From an uncultured Planctomycetota bacterium (GTDB taxonomy: Bacteria > Planctomycetota > Planctomycetia > Gemmatales > Gemmataceae): a stretch of 64,000 nucleotides of DNA. The notes under the pieces were generated by a model. It did not search any database and had not been told where the DNA came from. It worked only from the letters and a program-made list of their open reading frames with translations. Where the stretch lies: positions 64,001-128,000 of the forward strand of contig CAWKHF010000005.1 in assembly GCA_963849325.1 (NCBI GenBank), in the 5' to 3' direction. Shown here in pieces: positions 312-20,404 of this stretch. Within the stretch, counting starts at the first letter, position 1. Each line of letters starts with the position of its first letter. Both the position numbers and the translations under genes were made by a program.

Positions 312-391
312 AGCAGCCGGGCGGCCAGGAGGGACTGCATGTCGCGCGAAACCAGAATGGCCGCCCGGTCTGCTGAAGCGGTTTGTTCGGC
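312..391 (-). other. attC site, proximal part (R'', L'', stem)
   Basis: Minus strand GCCGAAC-aaacc-gcttcagcagac-cgggcggcca...tggccgcccg-gctgct, directly after the stop of the 398-883 gene. Confidence 0.85.
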
Positions 392-397
392 CCTCCG

Positions 398-883: not shown

Positions 884-1027
884 TATGGCTATCCGTCATC
901 TGTGCTATCCGGCACCCAACGACAATGCTCGACTGCCGAGTTGGATGGGGCGCCGCAAGCCGAACCCCATCGTGCCGGCCTGGAGACCAGTCCGGAAGCA
1001 AAACGCACATGGGCGAGGGGTCAAGTG

Positions 1028-1124
1028 GCCGAACGACGAAGCTCACCTGCCCGGCGGGCGCTGGGAGCGATGACCCTGGAACAGCCTCCATGCCCGCCGG
1101 GTCAGGTGCAGCGCCTGGTTAGCC
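1028..1124 (-). other. Intact attC site (97 bp)
   Basis: Minus strand GGCTAAC caggc gctgcacctgac ccggcggg...cccgccgg gcaggtgagc ttcgtc GTTCGGC. R''/L''/L'/R' boxes with an extrahelical G. Confidence 0.92.
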
Positions 1125-1128
1125 GAAA

Positions 1129-1655
1129 TCATAGCGACTGAAAGACCAAGGTGGAATCCACTTTCAGGATTGTGCCGTTGACGCTTCCGGCTCGGGCTAC
1201 AACCTGGCCGAGCGAACCGTCCGGCGCTTGAGCGTCCCCTCCACCACAATCCCGAGTTTGGAAGGAGCGCCCTTTCCTACTGTCGCGGCCACCAGTTCGC
1301 CATCGATCAAAAGGTGCACGCGTCGCCACACATACCATTCTCTGTAACCCACTTCGATCGTGTGTCCCCCAGACTGAAGAAGAAACCAGCGGTTGGATAG
1401 CGCGTAGCAAGACAGAACGGAGTCAATCGAGATCCGGCACCGGCAGCCCCAGCCGACGCGAACATGCACCGGATGGTTATCCCTGCCGGCATGACCAGCT
1501 TGCGCCGTCAGCGCGATCGGGAGGAGATGCCAGCCGCGCTGTTCGGCCGCTAAAACACCATCCAGATACAGGCGATCCCAAGGGTGGGAGTCGCGCCGCA
1601 TTTGGATGTGCGCCTCGTGCCCTTCCCACCGATAAGTCCACTCAATAACCGACAT
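1129..1655 (-). CDS. Integron cassette hypothetical protein (probable frameshift near 1230)
   Basis: ORF 1197-1655 apparently continues in the frame ending at 1129, next to the attC R''. Confidence 0.6.
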
Positions 1656-1687
1656 AGTTGCGATTACGGTGAAGAACGTCCAGCATC

Positions 1688-1705
1688 GGCTAACACCAAG
1701 CTCAG
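1688..1705 (-). other. attC distal half (L'/R'), split by IS1111
   Basis: Minus strand CTgagcttggtGTTAGCC. GTTAGCC is complementary to the R'' GGCTAAC at 1118-1124. Confidence 0.85.
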
Positions 1706-1797
1706 ATGGGGATGATGCCGGGTTGCTCCCACCGACGACAAGCCGGCGGTATTATGGAGTAACCCAGTAAAAGCCACCCCATCTGGAGCAACCCGAC

Positions 1798-2811
1798 ATG
1801 TCCACCACTCTACCACTGTTCGTCGGACTGGACTACTCCCAACACGCCGTCCAACTGTGCGTCTTGGACCCCACGGGTCAGGTCTTGTGTAACCGCGCCG
1901 TGCCTGACTCCGCCGACGCCATCGATCAGGCCGTCCGGCGATTCGGTGCCGTCCGCGGCGCCGCCCTGGAAGCCTGCACCGGAGCCGCCAACCTCGCCGA
2001 AGAACTCGCCGACCGCTACGCCTGGCCCGTCCACCTCGCCCACCCCGGATTCGTCAGCCGCATGAAGCAGTCGCCCGACAAAACCGACTTCTCCGACGCC
2101 CGCGTCCTGGCCGACCTCGAACGGGTCGGCTACCTACCCCGCGTCTGGATTGCACCCCAGCAGCTCCGTGAACTCCGTACCCTGGTCCGCGACCGCCAAC
2201 AACTGGCCGCCCAGCGACGCAATCTCAAGCTCCAGATCGGTGCCCTGCTACGGGAACACCGCCTACGCTGTAGCCACAACCGCTGGACGCGGGCCTGGCA
2301 CGCCTGGCTGGAGCATCAAGCTCAACTGCCCGAACAAGCACGCTGGGTCATGCAACAACGCCTGCGTCGGCTGGCCTGGATCGTCCAGGAGATCCGCACC
2401 GTCGAAGAACGTCTCCAACAAGTCACCGCTGTGGACGGCACCGTAACTTGGCTGCGGACGATCAAGGGCATTGGTCCGGTCACCGCCTGGACGTTGCGGG
2501 CCGAGATCGGTCGCTTCGACCGTTTCCGAACCGGCAAGCAGTTGGCGCGGTACTGCGGCCTGACGCCGTGCAACCGCTCCTCGGGCGTGCGTGAGGCCGA
2601 CGCCGGTTTGATCCGGGCGGCCAATCCCGAACTGCGTCGCGTGCTCATCGAGGCGGCCTGGCTGTTGGCTCGTCTGCAGCCGCGTTGGCGGCAACTGGCC
2701 GAGCGTCTGAAGGCACGGGGCAAACCGAGTACGGTGGTGATAGCGGCCGTGGCCAACCGCTTCGTGCGTTGGTTGTACCACGAAGGAGTCCGCCAACAGG
2801 CGGCGGCCTGA
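1798..2811 (+). CDS. IS110 family transposase (DEDD RuvC-like)
   Basis: Motifs FVGLDY, ALEAC, KTDFSDARVLA, GIGPVTA, YCGLTPCNRSSG. Intact 337 aa. Confidence 0.95.
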   Translation: MSTTLPLFVGLDYSQHAVQLCVLDPTGQVLCNRAVPDSADAIDQAVRRFGAVRGAALEACTGAANLAEELADRYAWPVHLAHPGFVSRMKQSPDKTDFSDARVLADLERVGYLPRVWIAPQQLRELRTLVRDRQQLAAQRRNLKLQIGALLREHRLRCSHNRWTRAWHAWLEHQAQLPEQARWVMQQRLRRLAWIVQEIRTVEERLQQVTAVDGTVTWLRTIKGIGPVTAWTLRAEIGRFDRFRTGKQLARYCGLTPCNRSSGVREADAGLIRAANPELRRVLIEAAWLLARLQPRWRQLAERLKARGKPSTVVIAAVANRFVRWLYHEGVRQQAAA

Positions 2812-2835
2812 CGGATAGTGACAAGGCGTTGTCAT

Positions 2836-2990
2836 TGTCGGGGAAGTTCCTGAGCGGTTGCGGGTGTGCTCGGCCGGCTGCTGGGGTTTAATCCTCGCGC
2901 TCAGATGGGGCAGCCCGCAACCTTTCTTCGCATCCCATTTGGGCAGGGTCTTGAACCCACGCTCGGATAAGAAGCATGGGAGCCCCGACA
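2836..2990 (+). ncRNA. Putative bridge RNA / seekRNA of the IS1111 element
   Basis: Closing stem tgtcgggg/ccccgaca. The inner stem ggttgcggg/cccgcaacc encloses a loop with gccggctgct and gctcag, which match the two sides of the attC insertion site. Confidence 0.75.
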
Positions 2991-3156
2991 GCGTTGGCGT
3001 CCTGCCGAAGATTTCGCCGCCTCCGTGCGGCGACCAGGGGCGCTGATTGCCGCCCCCTGGACCCCCGGCTAGCCTCTCTCTGTTCCGGGAGGAAGAGAGG
3101 AGACTAACGCCGAGAAAAGGTGATTTTCCTCTTGACGAGTGGCCTGGCATCATAGA

Positions 3157-3239
3157 AGCAGCCGGCTCACGCGGAATTGGCGTTATGACTCGGAGAGCCG
3201 CCTATCGCGTGGCCGGTCTGCTGCAGCGCCTGGTTCGCA
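3157..3239 (-). other. attC proximal part, split by IS1111
   Basis: Minus strand TGCGAAC caggc gctgcagcagac cggccacgcg...cgcgtgagccg gctgCT. Confidence 0.85.
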
Positions 3240-3305
3240 TCCTCGCAGGGTTCCCCTGCACCACAATGCCAGGAACTTGGGGCGAGACTCGCTTATCCTA
3301 CCTCC

Positions 3306-3494
3306 GGTGTCCGGTGTCGATGTCCGACATGCTTCTGGTGCTGAGAGGCTTTGCGCTCCGCCCGCTGGTTCGACTGGACCGGGGAGCGATTTTCGGCCCA
3401 CTCGTTTGGTGACGACCGCCTACGGCCTTCGACGCCGTCGCGGTCGATCCCGTTGGGACGGCTGGTGCCCGTGCCGACTCCCCCACCGGACACC
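3306..3494 (+). ncRNA. Putative bridge RNA upstream of the second IS110 transposase
   Basis: Perfect 11-bp closing stem ggtgtccggtg/caccggacacc enclosing several hairpins. The position matches IS110-group bridge RNAs. Confidence 0.45.
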
Positions 3495-3528
3495 CTGGTT
3501 CCCCAATCCCCCTATTGTGGAGGCTCCC

Positions 3529-5011
3529 GTGTCCGACTGCAAGACCCCACCACGCGACGCCCGTAAACCGCAAACGCCATCGGTGGCCGCGACCGCCAAC
3601 GAACTACGCCGCGCCGCCCGCCACGCTGAAAAGACCCGACGTGACGCCCAGGAGTGCGCCAAGCTGGTCTCGATGCCGGTGCAGCATGCTCACGCCGCCG
3701 GCATCGACGCTGGCGACGTCAGCCACTGGGCCTGCGTCGAATCCACCCCCGACGACAGCGACGCCGTCCGCGAGTTCCCCGCTCATACCGCCGGGCTGCG
3801 GCAATTGGTCGCCTGGCTACGCCAATGCGGCGTCACCACCGTGGCCGTGGAGGCCACCGGCGTCTACGCCCACGTCCTGTTTTTGACTCTGCTGGAAGCC
3901 GGCTTCGTGGTGGTGATGACCGCACCGCAGTTTGCCCGCCAGATCAAGGGCCGGCCCAAGACCGACAAGCGTGACTGCCAGTGGATTCAACGCCTGCACA
4001 AGCACGGCCTGTTGCCGGCCATCTTCCAGCCCGACGAGGCCACCCAGACCCTGCGCGACTACGTCCGCCAACGCGCCAACCTGGTCCGCCTGTCCGGCCA
4101 GCACATCCAGAGGATGCAGAAGGCGCTGCAACTGATGAACCTCAAGCTGACCGGCGTGCTGGGCGACGTCACCGGCGTAACGGGGCTAAAGATCATCCGG
4201 GCCATCCTCGCCGGCCAACGCGACCCGCAGCAACTGGCCAGGCTGCGCGACCGCCGCTGCCGGCACAGCGTTGCGGACATCGCCCAGGCGTTGGATGGCC
4301 GCTATCGCCCCGAGCATATAACCGAGCTGCGCTGTTGCCTGACCTTGTGGGAGAAGTATCAGGAGGTGATCGGTGAGCTGGACGAAGCCATCGACGCCCA
4401 CCTGCGGAGCATGCGTCGGCAGACCGCGTTGCCCCCACTGCCGCCCAAGCCCCGCATGCGTGGCCGCAAGCCGCACGACCCACGCTTTGACGTGCGCCAG
4501 GCGTTGTACTTGGCCACGGGCGTAGACCTGACGGCGATCGAAGGCATTGACGAGGTGCATGCGTTGACGTTGGTCAGTGAGCTGGGTTGGGACTTCACGA
4601 AATGGCCGACGGTCAAGCAGTTCACCTGCTGGCTGGGGCTGTGCCCCAACTGGCACAAGACCGGGGGTAAGGTGCAAGTCCAGCGCGACGCGTAAGGGCA
4701 AGGGGCGTGCGGCGCGGACGTTGTGTTTGGCGGCCTGGAGTCTGATGCGGAGCAAGAGCTATTTGGGAGCCTATCTGCGTCGTCAGCGTTCGCGTCTGGG
4801 TGCGCCCAAGGCGATCACGGCGACGGCGCACAAGCTGGCGCGGATCGTGTACCACTTGGTGCGTTACGGCATGGCCTACGTCAAGCAAACGGAGGCGGTC
4901 TACGCCGAGCAGGTGCGGGCGCGTCTGGAGAAGCAGTTGCGTCGTCGTGCGATGGAGCTGGGCTTCGAGCTGCGGAAGGTGGAGGCGCCGCCGATGCCGG
5001 CGGTGACCTAG
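3529..5011 (+). CDS. IS110 family transposase (frameshift near 4675)
   Basis: AAGIDAG, AVEATGVY, KTDKRDCQWIQRL, WLGLCP, then KAITATAHKLARIVY in the second frame. Confidence 0.9.
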
Positions 5012-5203
5012 ATTCGCGTTGGCGTTGGCAGTCATTGACAGTGAGGTGAGACGGAAACAGCGGAGAGGACAAGGGCGAAGGGCGGAAGGGAGCGGAGACG
5101 GTGCGCGCCGGCGGAGGCCCATCGCAGCAGGGAGCTACGTCACCGTCGCGTCACCTTCCGAGGAAGTTCCTGGGGCGGCCGTATTCTCTGACCCGGCAAG
5201 CCA

Positions 5204-5342
5204 TTACGGCCTGAAGAGACCGCGAACCTCTCTCTTGAGCTGCGCTGCCTTTCCCTCATACTTGGAGTACGAATACAACCAACCTTTGTATTCTCCGAAA
5301 CTAATCCGGCCCTCCTCCTCGTCAACGTCGAGAGGATTCATA
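5204..5342 (-). pseudogene. 3' fragment of an interrupted cassette gene
   Basis: Minus frame MNPLDVDEEEGRISFGEYKGWLYSYSKYEGKAAQLKREVRGLFRP*, lower GC, abutting the IS end. Confidence 0.45.
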
Positions 5343-6675
5343 GACTCAGTAGTTTCCGGTGAGTGTGAATTATGATACCATTCCCCAACTCATTCATACA
5401 TCCGATGTTCCGTGGCGATTTCATCGTGGATTCCCAAATGGGCTTCGGCCCAGTGTTGCAACCACACCAGCATCTTGCGAAAGCTCAAACGCCCCAGGTC
5501 GATCCGCCGACCGCCTCGCTGACGACGCGCCAACACCTGCCCATGCAACCACACCCAGACGTTGCGCAAGAGCAACGCCACCCCCACGTACAACAAACGC
5601 AGCAGCGGATCGCGCGTACACGTCCGAATCCGCGCCTGGTGCATCTGACGGTAACTCGTCTCGATGGCGAACCGACTCCGGTACGTCTCCTTCACCCACG
5701 TATACGACGACGGACGCAACGGCCCACCGAAGGCATAGACCAACGCCTCACGACCATGCCGTCCACGCTCGCCCCGCCGGTTGCGGCACTTCACGCACAC
5801 CGCGAACCGCGCCCGACGTTTGCTGGCATTGGTCATGGTGTACTGCCCCCAACCGCTCCGCTTGCACCCGGCGAAGACTCGGCTGCCCGAAGGCCCCTTG
5901 GGGTGGTCAGCCTTGCGGCCCCGCAACACCAACGGCATCAGCCACGCGTAGCGGGCGCTTTGCAAGTAGCGGATGACGTCCACGCTGCAAAACCCCCGAT
6001 CCAGCAGCAGATAACGCGGTCGGACACCGCCCTGGGCCGCTTGCCGCAACAGGCGTTGCAGCACGACGGGTAAGGCATCGTGGCGGTTCACCGTCGTCAG
6101 GGCAACCGTGAAGCGTCGTCCTTTGCGGAGGACGTAGGCGGTGGCGTAGGCGTGGAAGTGGCTGGTGCCACTCTTGGCCTGGCCGCGATAGATCTCGTCG
6201 GGTTGGTGCAAGGGTTTGCCGTGGTAAGGCAGCAGGGTGAGGTCAATGGCCAGGGGTTGGCGATGGCGACGTAAGGCGTGGGGCAGGTCGCCTTGCAGGG
6301 CGCGGTTGAGCCGGCGTTGTAATTCGGCGTAGGTGGGCAGGGTGGCCAGCAAGGCATCGTGGGCGGCGCTGTCGGAGGGAGCATCGCGGAGGGTGGCGCA
6401 GGCAGCGGCCAGGGAGATGATGCGGCTGGCGGCATAGAAGAGGACGGTCCACAGGGTATCGGTGGTGCATTTGCGGCCGTGGTCTGGCAGGCGGAGATGC
6501 TTTTGGATGCGCCAGGCGGCGTGGGCCTGGACGTGGGCGGGGGTGAGGGTATACTGCCGAGGTCGCATGGCTTCCTCCTGAAATGTCCTTGGTAGCACAA
6601 GTCATTATCAGGAGGAGCCTTGCGATTGCCCTCTACACCTTTTGTCGTTCCGCCCGAACCGGAAACTACTGAGGC
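5343..6675 (-). mobile_element. ISH3-like (IS4 superfamily) insertion sequence
   Basis: 18-bp terminal inverted repeats gactcagtagtttccggt / accggaaactactgaggc (1 mismatch), TA on both sides. Confidence 0.88.
5390..6568 (-). CDS. ISH3-family DDE transposase
   Basis: LAIDLTLLPYHG, AKSGTSHFHAYAT, LLLDRGF, YRSRFAIETSYR (YREK-like). Confidence 0.88.
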   Translation of the reverse strand: MRPRQYTLTPAHVQAHAAWRIQKHLRLPDHGRKCTTDTLWTVLFYAASRIISLAAACATLRDAPSDSAAHDALLATLPTYAELQRRLNRALQGDLPHALRRHRQPLAIDLTLLPYHGKPLHQPDEIYRGQAKSGTSHFHAYATAYVLRKGRRFTVALTTVNRHDALPVVLQRLLRQAAQGGVRPRYLLLDRGFCSVDVIRYLQSARYAWLMPLVLRGRKADHPKGPSGSRVFAGCKRSGWGQYTMTNASKRRARFAVCVKCRNRRGERGRHGREALVYAFGGPLRPSSYTWVKETYRSRFAIETSYRQMHQARIRTCTRDPLLRLLYVGVALLLRNVWVWLHGQVLARRQRGGRRIDLGRLSFRKMLVWLQHWAEAHLGIHDEIATEHRMYE

Positions 6676-7035: not shown

Positions 7036-7165
7036 CGGATTGAAACCCCACGGTGTCTCGCCGTCAAGCGAAATCTTAACCCGTGCCGTTTTTTTTCTTT
7101 CCTCCGTGTCTATCCAGGCGTACACTCCTTCTTCAGGACGCATTTTCCACTTTGCGGAGTGTCTC

Positions 7166-7630
7166 ATGTCCACACCTCCTTCCCCTCCTCGACTCCTCGA
7201 TCTCGTCCGTCCGGTCGCCCAGACACGCTTCGGCCAGGACGGACCTGGAGAACGCTACGCTTGTTGGACGCGCTGCCTGATTCTCTTTCACGACAAACGT
7301 CATCCCCGCGACCTGTCGCCCGGCGACGTGGGGCGTTTCCTCGAACACGTCGCGCAGACCGAAAAAGATGCCTTGAATGCTCTGGAAGAAGCCCATACCG
7401 CCCTGACCTTTCTCTACCGCGACGTTCTCGGCCTGGCCATCGGCGAACTGCCCTGCCCCGAGCCGCCGCGTTTGCTCGATCGCCTCCGCCGCGCTTGCCG
7501 CGTTCGTCAATACTCGCCCCGTACCGAAGACTGTTACACCGAGTGGGCCACGCGCTTCATCCGCTTTCACGGCCTGCGTCATTCCAACACGCTCACCGTC
7601 CGTCACGGCAAGGGCGCGGGGTCAGGTTAA
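7166..7630 (+). pseudogene. intI: Truncated integron integrase (duplicated N-terminal SAM-like domain, catalytic domain mostly deleted)
   Basis: PPRLLD twice and YSPRTEDCYTEWATRFIRFHGLRH (IntI N-terminus), joined directly to LTVRHGKG and a stop. Divergent from the cassette array. Confidence 0.85.
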
Positions 7631-15173: not shown

Positions 15174-16665
15174 ATGAGCACTTTTCACCGACACTTGCTA
15201 CCCAGATTCACTCCATTCATCCTTACCATCGGCACGGCCTTTCTGTCGATCCGCTCGGAAAGCAAGGTCTATTCCGCGGAAAAGACAGGTGTACCCAACA
15301 TCGTCTTCATCCTCGCCGACGACCTCGGCTATGGCGATTTGCACTGTTACAACAAGGACTCGAAGGTCCCGACGCCGCACCTCGACCGCCTGGCCGCGCA
15401 GGGCACGCGCTTCACCGACGCGCACACGCCATCCTCGCTGTGTACGCCGACGCGCTACGGCATCCTGACTGGCCGATACTGCTGGCGCTCGTCGCTGAAA
15501 CGCGGCGTGCTCAACGGCTACTCGCCGCTGTTGATCGAGCCGAAGCGCCTGACCGCGGCGTCTCTGCTCAAGCGTCACGGCTACGTCACGGCCGGCGTCG
15601 GCAAATGGCACCTCGGCCTGGGCGACGGCGGCAAGACCGACTTCGCCAAGCCGCTGCGGCCCGGCCCGTGCTCGGTCGGCTTCGATTCGTACTTCGGCAT
15701 CCCCGCCTCGCTCGACATGCCGCCTTACGTATTCATCGAGAACGAGGGCGTCACCGAGGCGCCGACGGCGACGATCGAGGCGAGTGCCATGCGCCGCCGG
15801 GGCGGCGACGGCTTCTGGCGCGCGGCGCCATCGCGCCGCACTTCAAGCACGCCGACGTCCTGCCGGCGCTGACCGAGCGCGCGGTCGGGCTTCGTCCGCA
15901 AGCAATCGGCTGAACAAGCCGTTCTTTCTCTATCTGGCGCTGACGGCGCCGCATACGCCGTGGATGCCGACCGAGGCGTTTCGCGGCAAGAGCGCGGCAG
16001 GCTGGTACGGCGATTTCGTCGCCCAGGTCGATGCCAGTGTCGGCCGTTTACTGCAAGCGCTGGACGAGGCGAAATTATCGGACAACACGCTGCTGATCTT
16101 CACCAGCGACAACGGGGCGCACTGGCTGCCGACCGACATCGACAAATGGGGACACCGGGCCAACGACGGCCTGCGCGGCCAGAAGGCCGACATCTGGGAC
16201 GGCGGTCATCGCGTGCCGTTTCTGGCTCGCTGGCCCGGCCGCGTTCCGGCCGGCGTCACGAGCAAGGAGCTGATTTGCCTGACGGATTTCCTGGCGACGG
16301 CGGCGGCCCTCGTCGGCGCCGAGCTGCCGGCCGACGCCGGTGAGGACAGTTACAACATCCTGCCCGCCCTGCGCGGCGACAAGCGCGATAAGCCAATCCG
16401 CGAGGCAATCGTACATCACTCCGGCGATGGTACGCTGGGCATCCGTCAGGGTCCGTGGAAGCTGGCGCTGGCGCTCGGCTCGCACGGGTTCAGCCAGCCG
16501 GCGAACGTCAAACCGAAACCCGACGGACCCAGGGGCCAGCTCTACAACCTCGACGACGATCCCGAGGAGCGCAACAATCAGTGGTTGGACAAGCCCGAGA
16601 TCGTGAAGCGCCTGACGGCGCTGCTGGAGAAGTACCAGCGCGAGGGCCGCAGCCGGCCGCGCTGA
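15174..16665 (+). CDS. Arylsulfatase (frameshifted)
   Basis: PNIVFILADDLGYGD, CTPTR formylglycine motif, GKWHLG, FTSDNG. Confidence 0.93.
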
Positions 16666-18065: not shown

Positions 18066-20404
18066 ATGAGACCGCCGTCGGCCCGCCTTTATTCGATCTC
18101 CTTCCTTTCCGTGCTGGCACTGCTCGCCGCGGGGTCCGCGCTTTGCGCCGCGGACGCCGGCGTTGTCTTCTTCGAGACGAAAGTGCGCCCGGTGCTGGTC
18201 GAGCACTGTTATCGCTGCCATTCGACGGCGACGAAGCAGCGCGGCGGATTGAGCCTGGACAGCCGCGACGGACTCCGCAAGGGCGGCGATACAGGGCCGG
18301 CGCTCGTGCCGGGTCAACCGAAGGACAGCCTGCTCCTCCAGGCGGTGCGCTACAGCGAGGAGCTGCGCATGCCGCCCAAAGGCAAGCTGCCCGACGCCGT
18401 CATCGCCGATTTGGAGAAGTGGATCGCGATGGGCGCGCCCGACCCGCGCACCGGGTCCGGCGCCGTCGTCGCGGCGAAAGGGATCGACGTGGAGGAGGGT
18501 CGCAAGTTCTGGGCGTTCCAGCCGCCGCGACCTCATCGCGTGCCGCAGGTCCAGGACACGAGCTGGCCGCGCGGCGACATCGATGCGTTCCTGCTCGCCG
18601 GCCTGGAGGCGAAGGGTCTGCGTCCGGCCGCGGACGCCGACCGGGCCGTGCTGCTGCGCCGCGTCTGTTTCGACCTCCTCGGCCTGCCGCCGACGCCGGG
18701 CCAAATCGACGCCTTCGTGAACGACCCATCGCCGAACGCCTTCGTCCGCGTCGTCGATGATTTGCTGGCCTCGCCGCACTTCGGCGAGCGCTGGGGTCGG
18801 CACTGGCTCGACGTGGCTCGCTTCGCCGAGTCCTCCGGCGGCGGCCGTTCGCTGCTGTTCCCCGACGCCTGGCGCTACCGCGATTACGTCATCGAATCGT
18901 TCAACGCCGACCGGCCCTACGACCAGCTTCGTCACCGAGCAGATCGCCGGCGATCTGCTGTCCGCTGCGACGCCGGAACAACGCCGCCGTCAGCTCGTCG
19001 CCACCGCTTTCCTGGTGCTCGGACCCACCAATTACGAGCAGCAGAACAAGGACGCTCTGGAGATGGACGTGGTGGACGAACAACTCGACACGATGGGCCG
19101 GGCCATCCTCGGCCTGACGATCGGCTGCGCTCGCTGTCACGATCACAAGTTCGATCCCATCCCGACGCGCGATTACTACGCCCTGGCCGGCATTCTGCAC
19201 AGCACGCGGACACTCCTTCACGACAACGTGTCGCGCTGGGTCGAGCAGCCGCTGCCGGTGAGTACCGAGCAGGATGAAACGATCCAACGACACGAGGCCG
19301 CCATCGCCGAGCTGCGCCAGCGTCTCAAGCAGGCCCGGACGGAGAAGGGCCAAAGCAAGGCAGCGGTGGAGTTGGAGAAGGAACTGCGGCGACGGATCGA
19401 GAGCGGGCCGCGGCGGCCGACGGCGATGGCGGTGCGCGACGCGGAGCGCATCGAGGATTGCGCCATCTGCATCCGCGGTAACATTGCCAGCCGTGGCGCC
19501 AAGGTGCCGCGCGGCTTCCTGCAAGTCGCCAGCACCGTCCCTTCACCCGCGCTGTCGGCGCGGGAGAGTGGTCGCCGCGAGCTGGCCGCCTGGCTGACCC
19601 GGCCGGACAATCCGCTGACGGCGCGAGTGATGGTCAATCGCATCTGGCATCACCTGTTCGGCGCCGGCCTGGTACGCACGGTGGACAACTTCGGCAGCGC
19701 CGGCGAACGGCCCTCGCATCCGGAATTGCTCGATGCGCTCGCCCTCCGTTTCGTGCAAGACGGCTGGTCCATCAAGAAACTGATCCGCGTCCTCGTGCTG
19801 TCGCACGCCTACCAAATGAGCAGCGCCGCCGGGCCGGAGGCGCCTGCGCGTCGATCCCGAGAATCGACTGCTGGGACGCATGAATCGACGCCGTCTCGAC
19901 GCCGAGTGTCTGCGCGACGCCATGCTGGCCGTCAGCGGCCGGCTCGACCGTTCGCTCGGCGGACCCACTATCCGGAAGGGCACGACCAGCGAGATCGCCT
20001 ATCGTTTCGACGAGACGCGCCGCAGCGTGTACGTGCCGATTTTCCGCAACAAGCTGCTGGAGCTGTTCGAGGCGTTCGACTTCGGCGACCCCAATCTCGT
20101 CAACGGCCGCCGCAACGTCAGCACCGTCGCCACGCAGGCGCTGTATCTGATGAACAGCCCGTTCGTGAGGGAGCAGGCGCGGCAGGCGGCGCGGGCGCTG
20201 CTCGACGTGCCGGGCCTGGACGAAAGCGGCCGTCTGGAACGTGCCTATCGTCTGGCGTTAGGCCGAGCCGCCGACGCTGCGCGAGCGCGACATCGCCTTG
20301 ACGTTCCTTGGCTCGTCCGAGGACAGGCAGCGCGGAACAGCGGTTGCCCAAATGGGGGCGGTTGTACCAGGCTTTGTTTGCGTGCCTGGATTTTCGCTAT
20401 GTGA
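18066..20404 (+). CDS. Planctomycete cytochrome c / PSCyt2 (DUF1549) / PSD1 (DUF1553) protein (frameshifted)
   Basis: CYRCH and CARCHDHKFDP, WGRHWLDVARFAES, NPLTARVMVNRIW. Confidence 0.92.

Follow-up and report, generated by a model that had tools for sequence, protein, structure and literature searches.

A predicted RNA-guided IS1111-family insertion sequence in an attC site of a decayed chromosomal integron

Introduction

The locus described here raises the question of how an insertion sequence (IS) finds one particular position within an integron recombination site (attC), and whether it is led there by its protein or by an RNA of its own. The window, i.e., the whole 64,000-nucleotide (nt) stretch of contig CAWKHF010000005.1 that was analyzed (positions 64,001 to 128,000 of the forward strand), carries such an element at positions 1706 to 3158, inserted in an attC. 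RNA guidance has already been published for IS110 and IS1111 elements (PMC11208160, PMC11187229), and the seekRNAs of the attC-targeting ISKpn4, ISPst6, and ISPa25 were demonstrated experimentally in 2024 by Siddiquee et al. (PMC11187229). Judging from its copies, its relatives, and its predicted folding, the element is very probably an intact, recently active IS of the IS1111 family with a predicted RNA-guided recombinase and a bridge/seekRNA.

Results

Limits and copies of the element

Alignment of four genomic copies with their flanks placed the limits of the element at 1706 and 3158 (1453 bp, with the AG/CT core counted once). Similarity between copies begins at ATGGGG and ends at ...CATAGAAG, and the AG core is found at both junctions in all four. 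Across these junctions, the + strand reads ...GGCTAACACCAAGCTCAG|ATGGGGATGATGCC...GGCATCATAGAAG|CAGCCGGCTCACGCGG..., and the rejoined target on the minus strand is GAGCCGGCTG-CT-GAGC. The four copies were found in the element's own genome (8.16 Mb in 14 contigs); they are 98 to 100% identical, and each has 1453 bp and an uninterrupted open reading frame (ORF) of 337 codons. Relative to the window copy, the other three have 1, 10, and 25 nucleotide differences, and copies A and B are separated by a single nucleotide. In the most diverged copy (D), the ORF has 22 nucleotide changes with just 4 amino acid (aa) changes, which points to purifying selection on the transposase. Every copy lies at ...AGCTCAG|IS|C(A/T)(G/A)CCGGCTCACGCGG, in the same attC position and orientation.

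These copies bear on a first alternative, namely, that the element is a dead relic that owes its copies to duplication or recombination of segments carrying attC rather than to transposition. Similarity, however, extends no farther than the attC on either side, beyond which the four loci have unrelated sequences. The small number of copies would suit a relic, as would a genome without an integrase and the lack of a detected promoter, whereas the intact ORFs, the mostly synonymous changes of copy D, and the near identity of copies A and B would not. In addition, relatives at 77 to 91% aa identity are found in the same attC position in soil metagenome contigs. Taken together, we regard the relic as a very unlikely explanation.

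Transposase and family

The IS1111 family has been defined by a transposase of 330 to 350 aa with the motif GL-P----S(t)G (PMC11187229) and by a longer noncoding region 3' of the transposase gene (tnp) and subterminal inverted repeats of 7 to 17 bp with short extensions (PMC11187229; PMC11208160, available excerpts). The window transposase matches PF01548 (DEDD_Tnp_IS110; 72.4 bits), PF02371 (Transposase_20; 87.4 bits), and the NCBIfam model NF033542, "IS110 family RNA-guided transposase" (203.5 bits; cutoff, 140). Its motif reads GLTPCNRSSG (residues 254 to 263). Noncoding DNA amounts to 347 nt downstream of tnp (2812 to 3158) versus 92 nt upstream (1706 to 1797). The subterminal inverted repeats are 8 bp long (ATGATGCC at 1712 to 1719 and GGCATCAT at 3146 to 3153), with terminal extensions of 6 and 5 nt. 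Insertion was sequence specific, in a single orientation, and without duplication past the shared core in 4/4 genomic copies. Because of its domains, its 337-aa length and motif, its long downstream noncoding region, and its subterminal repeats, assignment to the IS1111 family (within IS110 sensu lato) is supported, and the type proposed from the letters alone thus agrees with all of these family features.

Among 11 relatives, D12, E58, D100, P257, and S261-S262-G263 are invariant and D97 is nearly so. The residues D12, E58, D97, and D100 and the serine are placed like the catalytic residues of IS621 (D11, E60, D102, D105, and S241, according to the available part of PMC11208158), a correspondence by position only between unaligned proteins. 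The nearest solved structures are those of the ISCro4 and IS621 transposases, similar over the C-terminal domain only, with E values of about 1e-16 (IS621, 4.8e-16).

A predicted guide RNA in the right end

Within the downstream noncoding region, positions 2836 to 2990 of the + strand fold into a closed structure (-72.2 kcal/mol; z = -2.64), and only 1 of 200 shuffled sequences folded as well. An RNA on the minus strand was rejected, given its weaker fold (-61.5 versus -72.2 kcal/mol) and a guide geometry inverted with respect to both published models. In copies C and D, the change G2987A weakens the outermost stem (2836 to 2843 with 2983 to 2990).

For comparison, species genomes supplied 12 loci and metagenome contigs another 80, with aa identities of 47 to 91% (loci are designated below by L numbers); the named organisms are mostly metagenome-assembled genomes (MAGs) of Planctomycetota. 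Their right ends share a scaffold that begins with a basal stem and GCUCG, continues with 10 variable nt, a GGGC-hairpin-GCUCG unit, a further 7 variable nt, and AUGGGGCAG, and then returns to the basal stem on its other side. A second module of the scaffold reads CUCGAAxxACCCACUU-GGGC-hairpin-GCUCG-GAUAGAAG-AAUGGG. From 41 sequences, RNAalifold derived a structure of 28 pairs, 14 of them with compensatory changes. Paired cells made up 95.5% under this structure, versus at most 54.5% when partners were slid by 1 to 3 columns, and the covariation score was 0.369 versus at most 0.104 for the slid partners. On four of five measures, the observed structure values were reached by none of 500 shuffles, and on the fifth they were reached by 5 of 500. 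Both guides fall in unpaired columns of this structure.

In the window, the 5' guide matches the target over 10 nt and the 3' guide over 6 nt, where GCUCAG (2899 to 2904) complements CT+GAGC. Within the 64 kb, GCCGGCTGCT-N10-30-GCTCAG has a single occurrence, at these guides, and 0/100 dinucleotide shuffles contained it. The guides are arranged with the complement of the top strand of the element ahead of the match to the bottom strand. This is the order given for IS1111 seekRNAs, the reverse of that of the IS110 type (PMC11187229).

The guides of relatives were also compared with their own flanks. Scanning 93 related loci with regular expressions for the scaffold gave 59 matches, corresponding to 51 nonredundant guide pairs; the 34 loci without a scaffold match, many of them on contigs that end within the element, were left out of the counts. 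The 10-mer guide was allowed to end on the core or one base later. The 5' guide matched the reverse complement of the right flank plus core in a run of at least 7 nt in 34 of 45 nonredundant elements (at least 8 nt in 29/45), while only 0.8% of 1966 mismatched guide-flank pairings reached 7 nt. Along similar lines, the 3' 7-mer matched the left flank in a run of at least 5 nt in 30/47 elements, versus 2.4% of 2134 mismatched pairings. For neither guide did any of 2000 permuted trials reach the observed mean.

An earlier note on this stretch, made from its letters, had described the closed fold at 2836 to 2990, a stem at 2856 to 2864 and 2914 to 2922, and two loop segments (GCCGGCTGCT at 2873 to 2882 and GCTCAG at 2899 to 2904) matching the target, and had proposed comparison with IS1111 relatives as a check. 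The fold is confirmed against shuffles, with a narrower conserved core (about 2848 to 2980), the stem is present and covaries in relatives, and both segments are where they were said to be and match both flanks. The proposed comparison bears the idea out, in that both guides track their own flanks far above mismatched controls and the scaffold stems covary. An intact guide-bearing IS1111 element whose predicted RNA matches attC is, in our opinion, supported.

Two side observations concern this part of the analysis. Between the RNA and the right tip, a stretch of ~140 nt (2991 to 3131) contains three strong hairpins (e.g., CCAGGGGCGCUGAUUGCCGCCCCCUGG; CCUCUCUCU...AGAGAGG); it is confined to the window subclade (window and L022) and absent in more distant relatives. 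Five metagenome contigs (L065, L067, L081, L083, and L104) have guides of the form TGCTNACGCT or TGCTCGCGCT and sites reading CGCTNACGCT|, which suggests a second family of repeated targets for this clade.

Site specificity among genomic copies and relatives

The exact 14-mer GCTCAG+CAGCCGGC occurs uninterrupted once in the genome, within an attC at C5:750906, where composition predicts 0.37. Including it, there are three exact 14-nt sites, one free and two occupied (copies A and C); copies B and D occupy two further sites that are one base off, with the mismatch 2 to 3 nt from the core. Copies at unrelated sites, which the earlier note had named as evidence against its proposal, were looked for as well. 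All four genomic copies are in this site, and the attC model fits 7/59 reconstructed sites, all of them in the closest subclade (77 to 91% identity; window, L022, L050, L051, L053, L056, and L057). Within this attC-targeting subclade, L057 represents a small step, with guide GGCGGCTGCT and flank CGCGGCTGCT. L030 (62% identity) is at a different attC-like site, GGCTCAG|TTGCCGGCC, and its guide has changed to match (CGGCAACT, with flank CGGCAACT). The remaining relatives target unrelated sequences, the nearest of them (47 to 65% identity) being at non-attC sites.

This distribution is difficult to reconcile with a second alternative, in which the transposase protein reads attC directly, e.g., by its hairpin shape as the integron integrase does, and the flank matches are by-products. 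A structured, conserved repeat such as attC would lend itself to such recognition, and the guide RNA of this organism is predicted from sequence. Nevertheless, relatives with the same protein family and scaffold occupy unrelated sites that follow their own loops, few reconstructed sites fit the attC model, and the segments that match are in columns left unpaired by a structure that covaries. Moreover, the RNA is essential for ISKpn4, ISPst6, and ISEc11, as stated in the available text of PMC11187229. Direct recognition by the protein appears extremely unlikely to us, and we retain guidance by the predicted RNA as the preferred reading.

The target site

All four flanks are members of a single family of repeats, about 100 nt long, whose + strand consensus is GCCGAAC-GACAAAGCTCAG^CAGCCGGCTCACGCGG-(variable)-CGCGTGGCCGGTCTGCTGCAGCGCCTGGTTCGGC. 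A refined nhmmer model of this repeat found 47 sites in the genome at E < 1e-3, distributed over 11 contigs and mostly solitary or paired, with some attC-like pairs spaced 640 to 860 bp apart. An attC is an imperfect palindrome with RYYYAAC/GTTRRRY boxes, an unpaired spacer, and extrahelical bases. The consensus GCCGAAC...GTTCGGC has a 7-bp R stem, a 5-nt unpaired spacer, and a bulged C and T 6 bp apart on the + strand; its boxes (GCCGAAC/GTTCGGC) depart from RYYYAAC/GTTRRRY at one position.

An integron integrase above the TIGR02249 cutoff was present in 25 of 61 sampled genomes of the same taxonomic family, and the 16 loci taken represent 13 distinct intI neighborhoods. The repeat model matched 8 of these 13 (E < 1e-3), and in 8/8 it was oriented toward intI, with the array 5' or 3' of the gene. 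At L045, for instance, 22 sites follow each other, the first 420 bp from intI and with gaps of 190 to 480 bp. Since the model points toward intI and integron cassettes read outward from the attI/intI side, the + strand is the bottom strand of attC. As an observation in its own right, the related genomes show two integron layouts, one with the array 5' of intI (divergent) and the other with the array 3' and intI reading toward it (L034 to L036 and L042 versus L045 and L047 to L049).

The interrupted attC (1684 to 1705 plus 3159 to 3239; 103 nt in total) is the nearest one to an integrase remnant in the window. On the attC top strand, the insertion point divides the site into 81 nt on the 5' (R'') side and 22 nt on the 3' (R') side, and the transposase (+ strand) is antisense to the cassettes (minus strand). 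The placement in the L' arm, put forward before, is fair, with the top strand of attC being the minus strand of the window.

Could the repeat be a palindromic repeat of another kind, of the repetitive extragenic palindromic (REP) or miniature inverted-repeat transposable element (MITE) type, and the integron link spurious? The arrays beside intI, always directed toward it and with cassette-sized spacing, speak against this, and so do the ORF-attC-ORF-attC layout with an intI remnant in the window and the fold described above, with its R stem, spacer, and two bulged bases on one strand. The deviating box position, the mostly solitary or paired copies, and a genome without an integrase are what such a repeat could explain, and we take it to be the most improbable of the alternatives considered. 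Judged from the arrays beside intI in related genomes and from the cassette array within the window, the target is a true attC, as had been proposed for the flanking repeat.

The decayed integron and its other insertion sequences

Because three attCs, cassette ORFs, and an intI remnant are found together (Table 1), the window can be said, on sequence grounds, to contain a decayed chromosomal integron. The remnant (7040 to 7630) matches only integron-integrase families in NCBIfam (TIGR02249, 64.8 bits; NF011946, 62.1 bits), and its pieces are 37 to 49% identical to the N terminus of the IntI of a relative. Three insertion sequences lie between the attC array and this remnant.

Besides the IS1111 element, a second, unrelated IS110-family element (about 3240 to 5176; tnp, 3697 to 4695) adjoins the R'' box of the same attC (...GCGCCTGGTTCG|). 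Its NF033542 score is 199.7 bits, and in its long noncoding region, which is upstream, CTGGTTCG (3365 to 3372) equals its own left flank and TACGGCC (3421 to 3427) is the reverse complement of its own right flank. This guide order is that of the IS110 type. There is a copy with 99.5% identity at G000 C1:444191-446138, the right flank of which has no match, and a partial one at C5:1040699-1041712. The third insertion sequence (5390 to 6598, minus strand) encodes a DDE_Tnp_1 transposase of 402 aa. Repeats of ~55 to 60 bp from around 5340 to 5400 recur at more than nine places in the genome. Farther along the window, a sulfatase gene is seemingly split over two overlapping frames (15174 to 15872 and 15784 to 16665), which may be a frameshift, and a PSCyt2/PSD1 (DUF1549/DUF1553) protein, of a kind typical of Planctomycetota, is encoded at 18757 to 20301.

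Table 1. Coordinates of the element, its predicted RNA, the interrupted attC, and the integron remains in the window
Feature	Position	Strand	Description or basis
IS1111-family insertion sequence	1706-3158	+	1453 bp, one of 4 genomic copies; copy search and alignment
Left end	1706-1719	+	6-nt tip ATGGGG (1706-1711), then subterminal inverted repeat ATGATGCC (1712-1719); sequence and left ends of relatives
Right end	3132-3158	+	conserved -35-like TTGACG (3132-3137), subterminal repeat GGCATCAT (3146-3153), tip AGAAG ending in AG core (3157-3158)
Transposase/recombinase gene	1798-2811	+	337 aa; DEDD/RuvC-like domain and Tnp domain
Predicted bridge/seekRNA region	2836-2990	+	core kept in relatives about 2848-2980; outer stem 2836-2843/2983-2990 subclade specific; folding and relatives
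Predicted target-binding module	2857-2921	+	basal stem 2857-2865/2913-2921 (covaries), invariant GCUCG (2868-2872), distal hairpin GGGG...CCUC (2883-2896)
Predicted 5' target guide	2873-2882	+	GCCGGCUGCU, equal to attC top strand GCCGGCTG+CT; complementary to + strand AG+CAGCCGGC at 3157-3166
Predicted 3' target guide	2898-2910	+	variable 7-mer CGCUCAG; GCUCAG (2899-2904) equals left flank plus core; then AUGGGG (2905-2910)
Putative donor-binding module	2923-2980	+	5' side CAUCCCAUUU (2931-2940) versus left end; hairpin GGGC...GCUC (2941-2964); 3' side AUAAGAAG (2967-2974) versus right end CATAGAAG (3151-3158)
Interrupted attC, 3' part (top-strand terms)	1684-1705	-	+ strand GGCTAAC ACCAAGCTC AG; GGCTAAC (1684-1690) is the complement of R' box GTTAGCC; AG (1704-1705) is the flank core copy
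Interrupted attC, 5' part (top-strand terms)	3159-3239	-	+ strand CAGCCGGCTCACGCGG...CGCGTGGCCGGTCTGCTGCAGCGCCTGGTTCG
attC	312-394		same orientation as interrupted attC
attC	1021-1128		same orientation as interrupted attC
Cassette ORF, then attC	883 to 398	-	DUF2262
Cassette ORF, then attC	1655 to 1197	-	no family
intI remnant	7040-7630		two scrambled, out-of-order N-terminal pieces, on the side to which the attCs point

Discussion

Proposed mechanism

Given these results, the element would work as a DEDD/serine recombinase (1798 to 2811) with a two-module RNA of about 130 to 155 nt (2836 to 2990) in its right end. The target module would present two unpaired guides between invariant elements (GCUCG, guide, GGGC hairpin GCUCG, guide). 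The 5' guide GCCGGCUG-CU would pair with one attC strand on one side of the CT core, and the 3' guide GCUC-AG with the other strand on the other side. In the donor module, AUA(A)GAAG and UCCCAUUU resemble the right and left tips as they would be joined in an excised circle. The recombinase-RNA complex would then synapse the circle junction (...CATAGA-AG-ATGGGG...) with attC, and strand exchange would take place at the CT core. Insertion splits the arms of the attC hairpin and would be expected to block integrase-mediated excision at that cassette boundary. Production and binding of the RNA, an excised circle as intermediate, the reaction chemistry, and the consequences for cassette mobility are proposed by analogy with the relatives described in the available parts of PMC11187229, PMC11208160, and PMC11208158.

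In relatives, CTTGAC precedes the right end CATAGAAG at a fixed spacing. This conserved spacing, together with a junction promoter (Pjunc) that ISEc11 reportedly has, to go by the title of a cited reference, leads us to infer a promoter on the circle, made up of TTGACG (3132 to 3137), a 17-nt spacer, and GAAG|AT.

As for the donor side, CATCCCAT (2931 to 2938) had been suggested as a donor guide. It does resemble the reverse complement of the left end (CATCCCCAT), but one C is missing and informative covariation is lacking, so that the suggestion stands only in part. A single covarying case was found, L024, with GAUAGAGG and the end CATAGAGG, where the RNA and the right end both have GAGG. Directly 3' of the 3' target guide, AUGGGG (2905 to 2910) is identical to the left tip of the element. 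At the corresponding position, IS621 has a 2-nt handshake guide (PMC11208158, available excerpts). The segment may act like a handshake, or it may belong to a short GCUC/GGGC stem of the scaffold.

With regard to expression, no public run contained more than 0.14 of the sampled words of the element, and the four runs compared with it in detail yielded nothing beyond fragments. In one rhizosphere metatranscriptome run, a single 194-nt contig (depth, 2.9) matches 2860 to 2981 with 1 difference, which is a weak hint of the guide RNA because such libraries can contain DNA. The stretches left uncovered in this run carry no information on the transposase mRNA.

A number of observations weigh against the reading presented above. 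As to the guides, the 5' run was shorter than 7 nt in 11/45 elements and the 3' run shorter than 5 nt in 17/47 (runs of 3 to 4 nt). About half of the weak 5' guides come close, being off by a single mismatch or displaced by 1 nt (L029, L080, L105, L108, L089, and L116; in L080, for instance, guide AAGAATCCGT versus GAGAATCCT). Another five 5' guides are without any match (L027, L061, L074, L079, and L098), L079 being probably a misregistered scaffold match. In the donor module, AUAAGAAG (2967 to 2974) matches the right tip CATAGAAG but with one extra A (a 1-nt bulge), and UCCCAUUU (2933 to 2940) pairs with AG+ATGGGG only with two G-U pairs; the element ends are nearly invariant among relatives, which leaves too little variation for a covariation test of the donor. 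In the putative handshake segment, RNAalifold pairs GGGC with the invariant GCUC. At the level of the RNA itself, Rfam gave 0 matches at gathering thresholds over the whole window (no curated bridge-RNA family applies), the scan of the integrated element (1600 to 3300) gave 0 sigma-70-type promoters and 0 intrinsic terminators, and the one RNA-library contig over the guide region is of low depth. Finally, no integron integrase above the TIGR02249 cutoff was found in the element's own genome (84.7% complete), where the best score was 85 bits. The same-genus relative G038 has none above the cutoff either.

Significance

This locus would provide a natural case in which the guide of an RNA-guided recombinase can be read directly against its target. 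Furthermore, the clade offers about 45 independent natural guide/target pairs with a common scaffold, in which the series GCUCG, guide, GGGC hairpin GCUCG, guide occurs twice. Such a set could serve as a training or benchmark resource for the rules of IS1111-type elements, less well characterized than those of IS621, among them guide length, the 1-nt register shift, tolerance of mismatches beside the core, and a possible long handshake. With this element, attC-targeting insertion sequences would be known not just from Proteobacteria but from a further phylum, and from the opposite arm of attC, and RNA-guided insertion sequences would become linked to the erosion of chromosomal integrons.

Comparison with known systems

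IS1111 elements that target attC were reportedly described by Tetu and Holmes in 2008 and by Post and Hall in 2009. In this group (ISPst6, ISPa21, ISKpn4, and the more distant ISPa25), as in the window, insertion is site specific within attC and antisense to cassette transcription, and a short RNA 3' of tnp has two segments that match the two target strands in the same order. The hosts of the group are Proteobacteria, whereas the host of this element is probably a member of Planctomycetota; our literature search found no report of such an element in that phylum. The attC is also of a different class, and the element interrupts it 22 nt short of the 3' (R') end, while for the proteobacterial group insertion close to the 5' end of attC, antisense to the cassettes, has been described (PMC3001079, available excerpts). 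Among 72,556 plasmids, the best tblastn identity was 33% (ISKpn4 and ISPst6 were compared by description only). The nearest relatives of this element (47 to 65% identity) target non-attC sequences, which suggests independent retargeting to attC. This and the plasmid identity of at most 33% speak indirectly against membership in the monophyletic ISPst6/ISPa21 clade. Because insertion is not at the 5' end, we do not file the element in the named IS1111-attC group, although it appears to act like its members, and keep the assignment to the IS1111 family only.

One could go further and propose that attC targeting arose independently of the proteobacterial group by guide rewriting within a large, mostly planctomycete IS1111 clade, that two unrelated RNA-guided elements settled on one attC, and that RNA-guided insertion sequences are recurrent convergent parasites of attC and a cause of integron decay. 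We offer this wider scenario tentatively, as one that falls just short of an even chance.

The bridge RNA of IS621, of the IS110 group (Durrant et al., PMC11208160; Hiraizumi et al., PMC11208158; both in the excerpts available), likewise has two modules, with target and donor loops. In each loop of IS621, one guide equals the top strand up to a CT core and another is complementary to the core and the other flank, as seen here for the target loop, and IS621 shares with this element the CT core, the DEDD and serine catalytic residues, and a match to the donor right after the 3' target guide, which in IS621 is the handshake. In contrast, its RNA is in the left end, upstream of the recombinase gene, while that of this element would be in the right end, where PMC11208160 places the RNA of IS1111 elements by prediction. 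The guides of the two also read the target in opposite senses relative to tnp, this element has 8-bp subterminal inverted repeats, the possible handshake is of 6 nt rather than 2, and the proteins are only distantly similar (C-terminal domain; E = 4.8e-16).

The natural reprogramming seen between ISEc11 and ISXne4 (PMC11187229, available excerpts) resembles what we found in that the scaffold is kept and guide segments are swapped for new sites. Compared with the account in those excerpts, the present clade has more than 40 distinct natural guide pairs, differs in host range and scaffold sequence, and is known here from sequence alone. Group IIC-attC introns also home to attC antisense to the cassettes (PMC3001079, in its available part), but they are retroelements with a wholly different mechanism. 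The mechanism proposed for the window element is thus one already known from its IS110 and IS1111 relatives, of which it would be a further, well-supported example.

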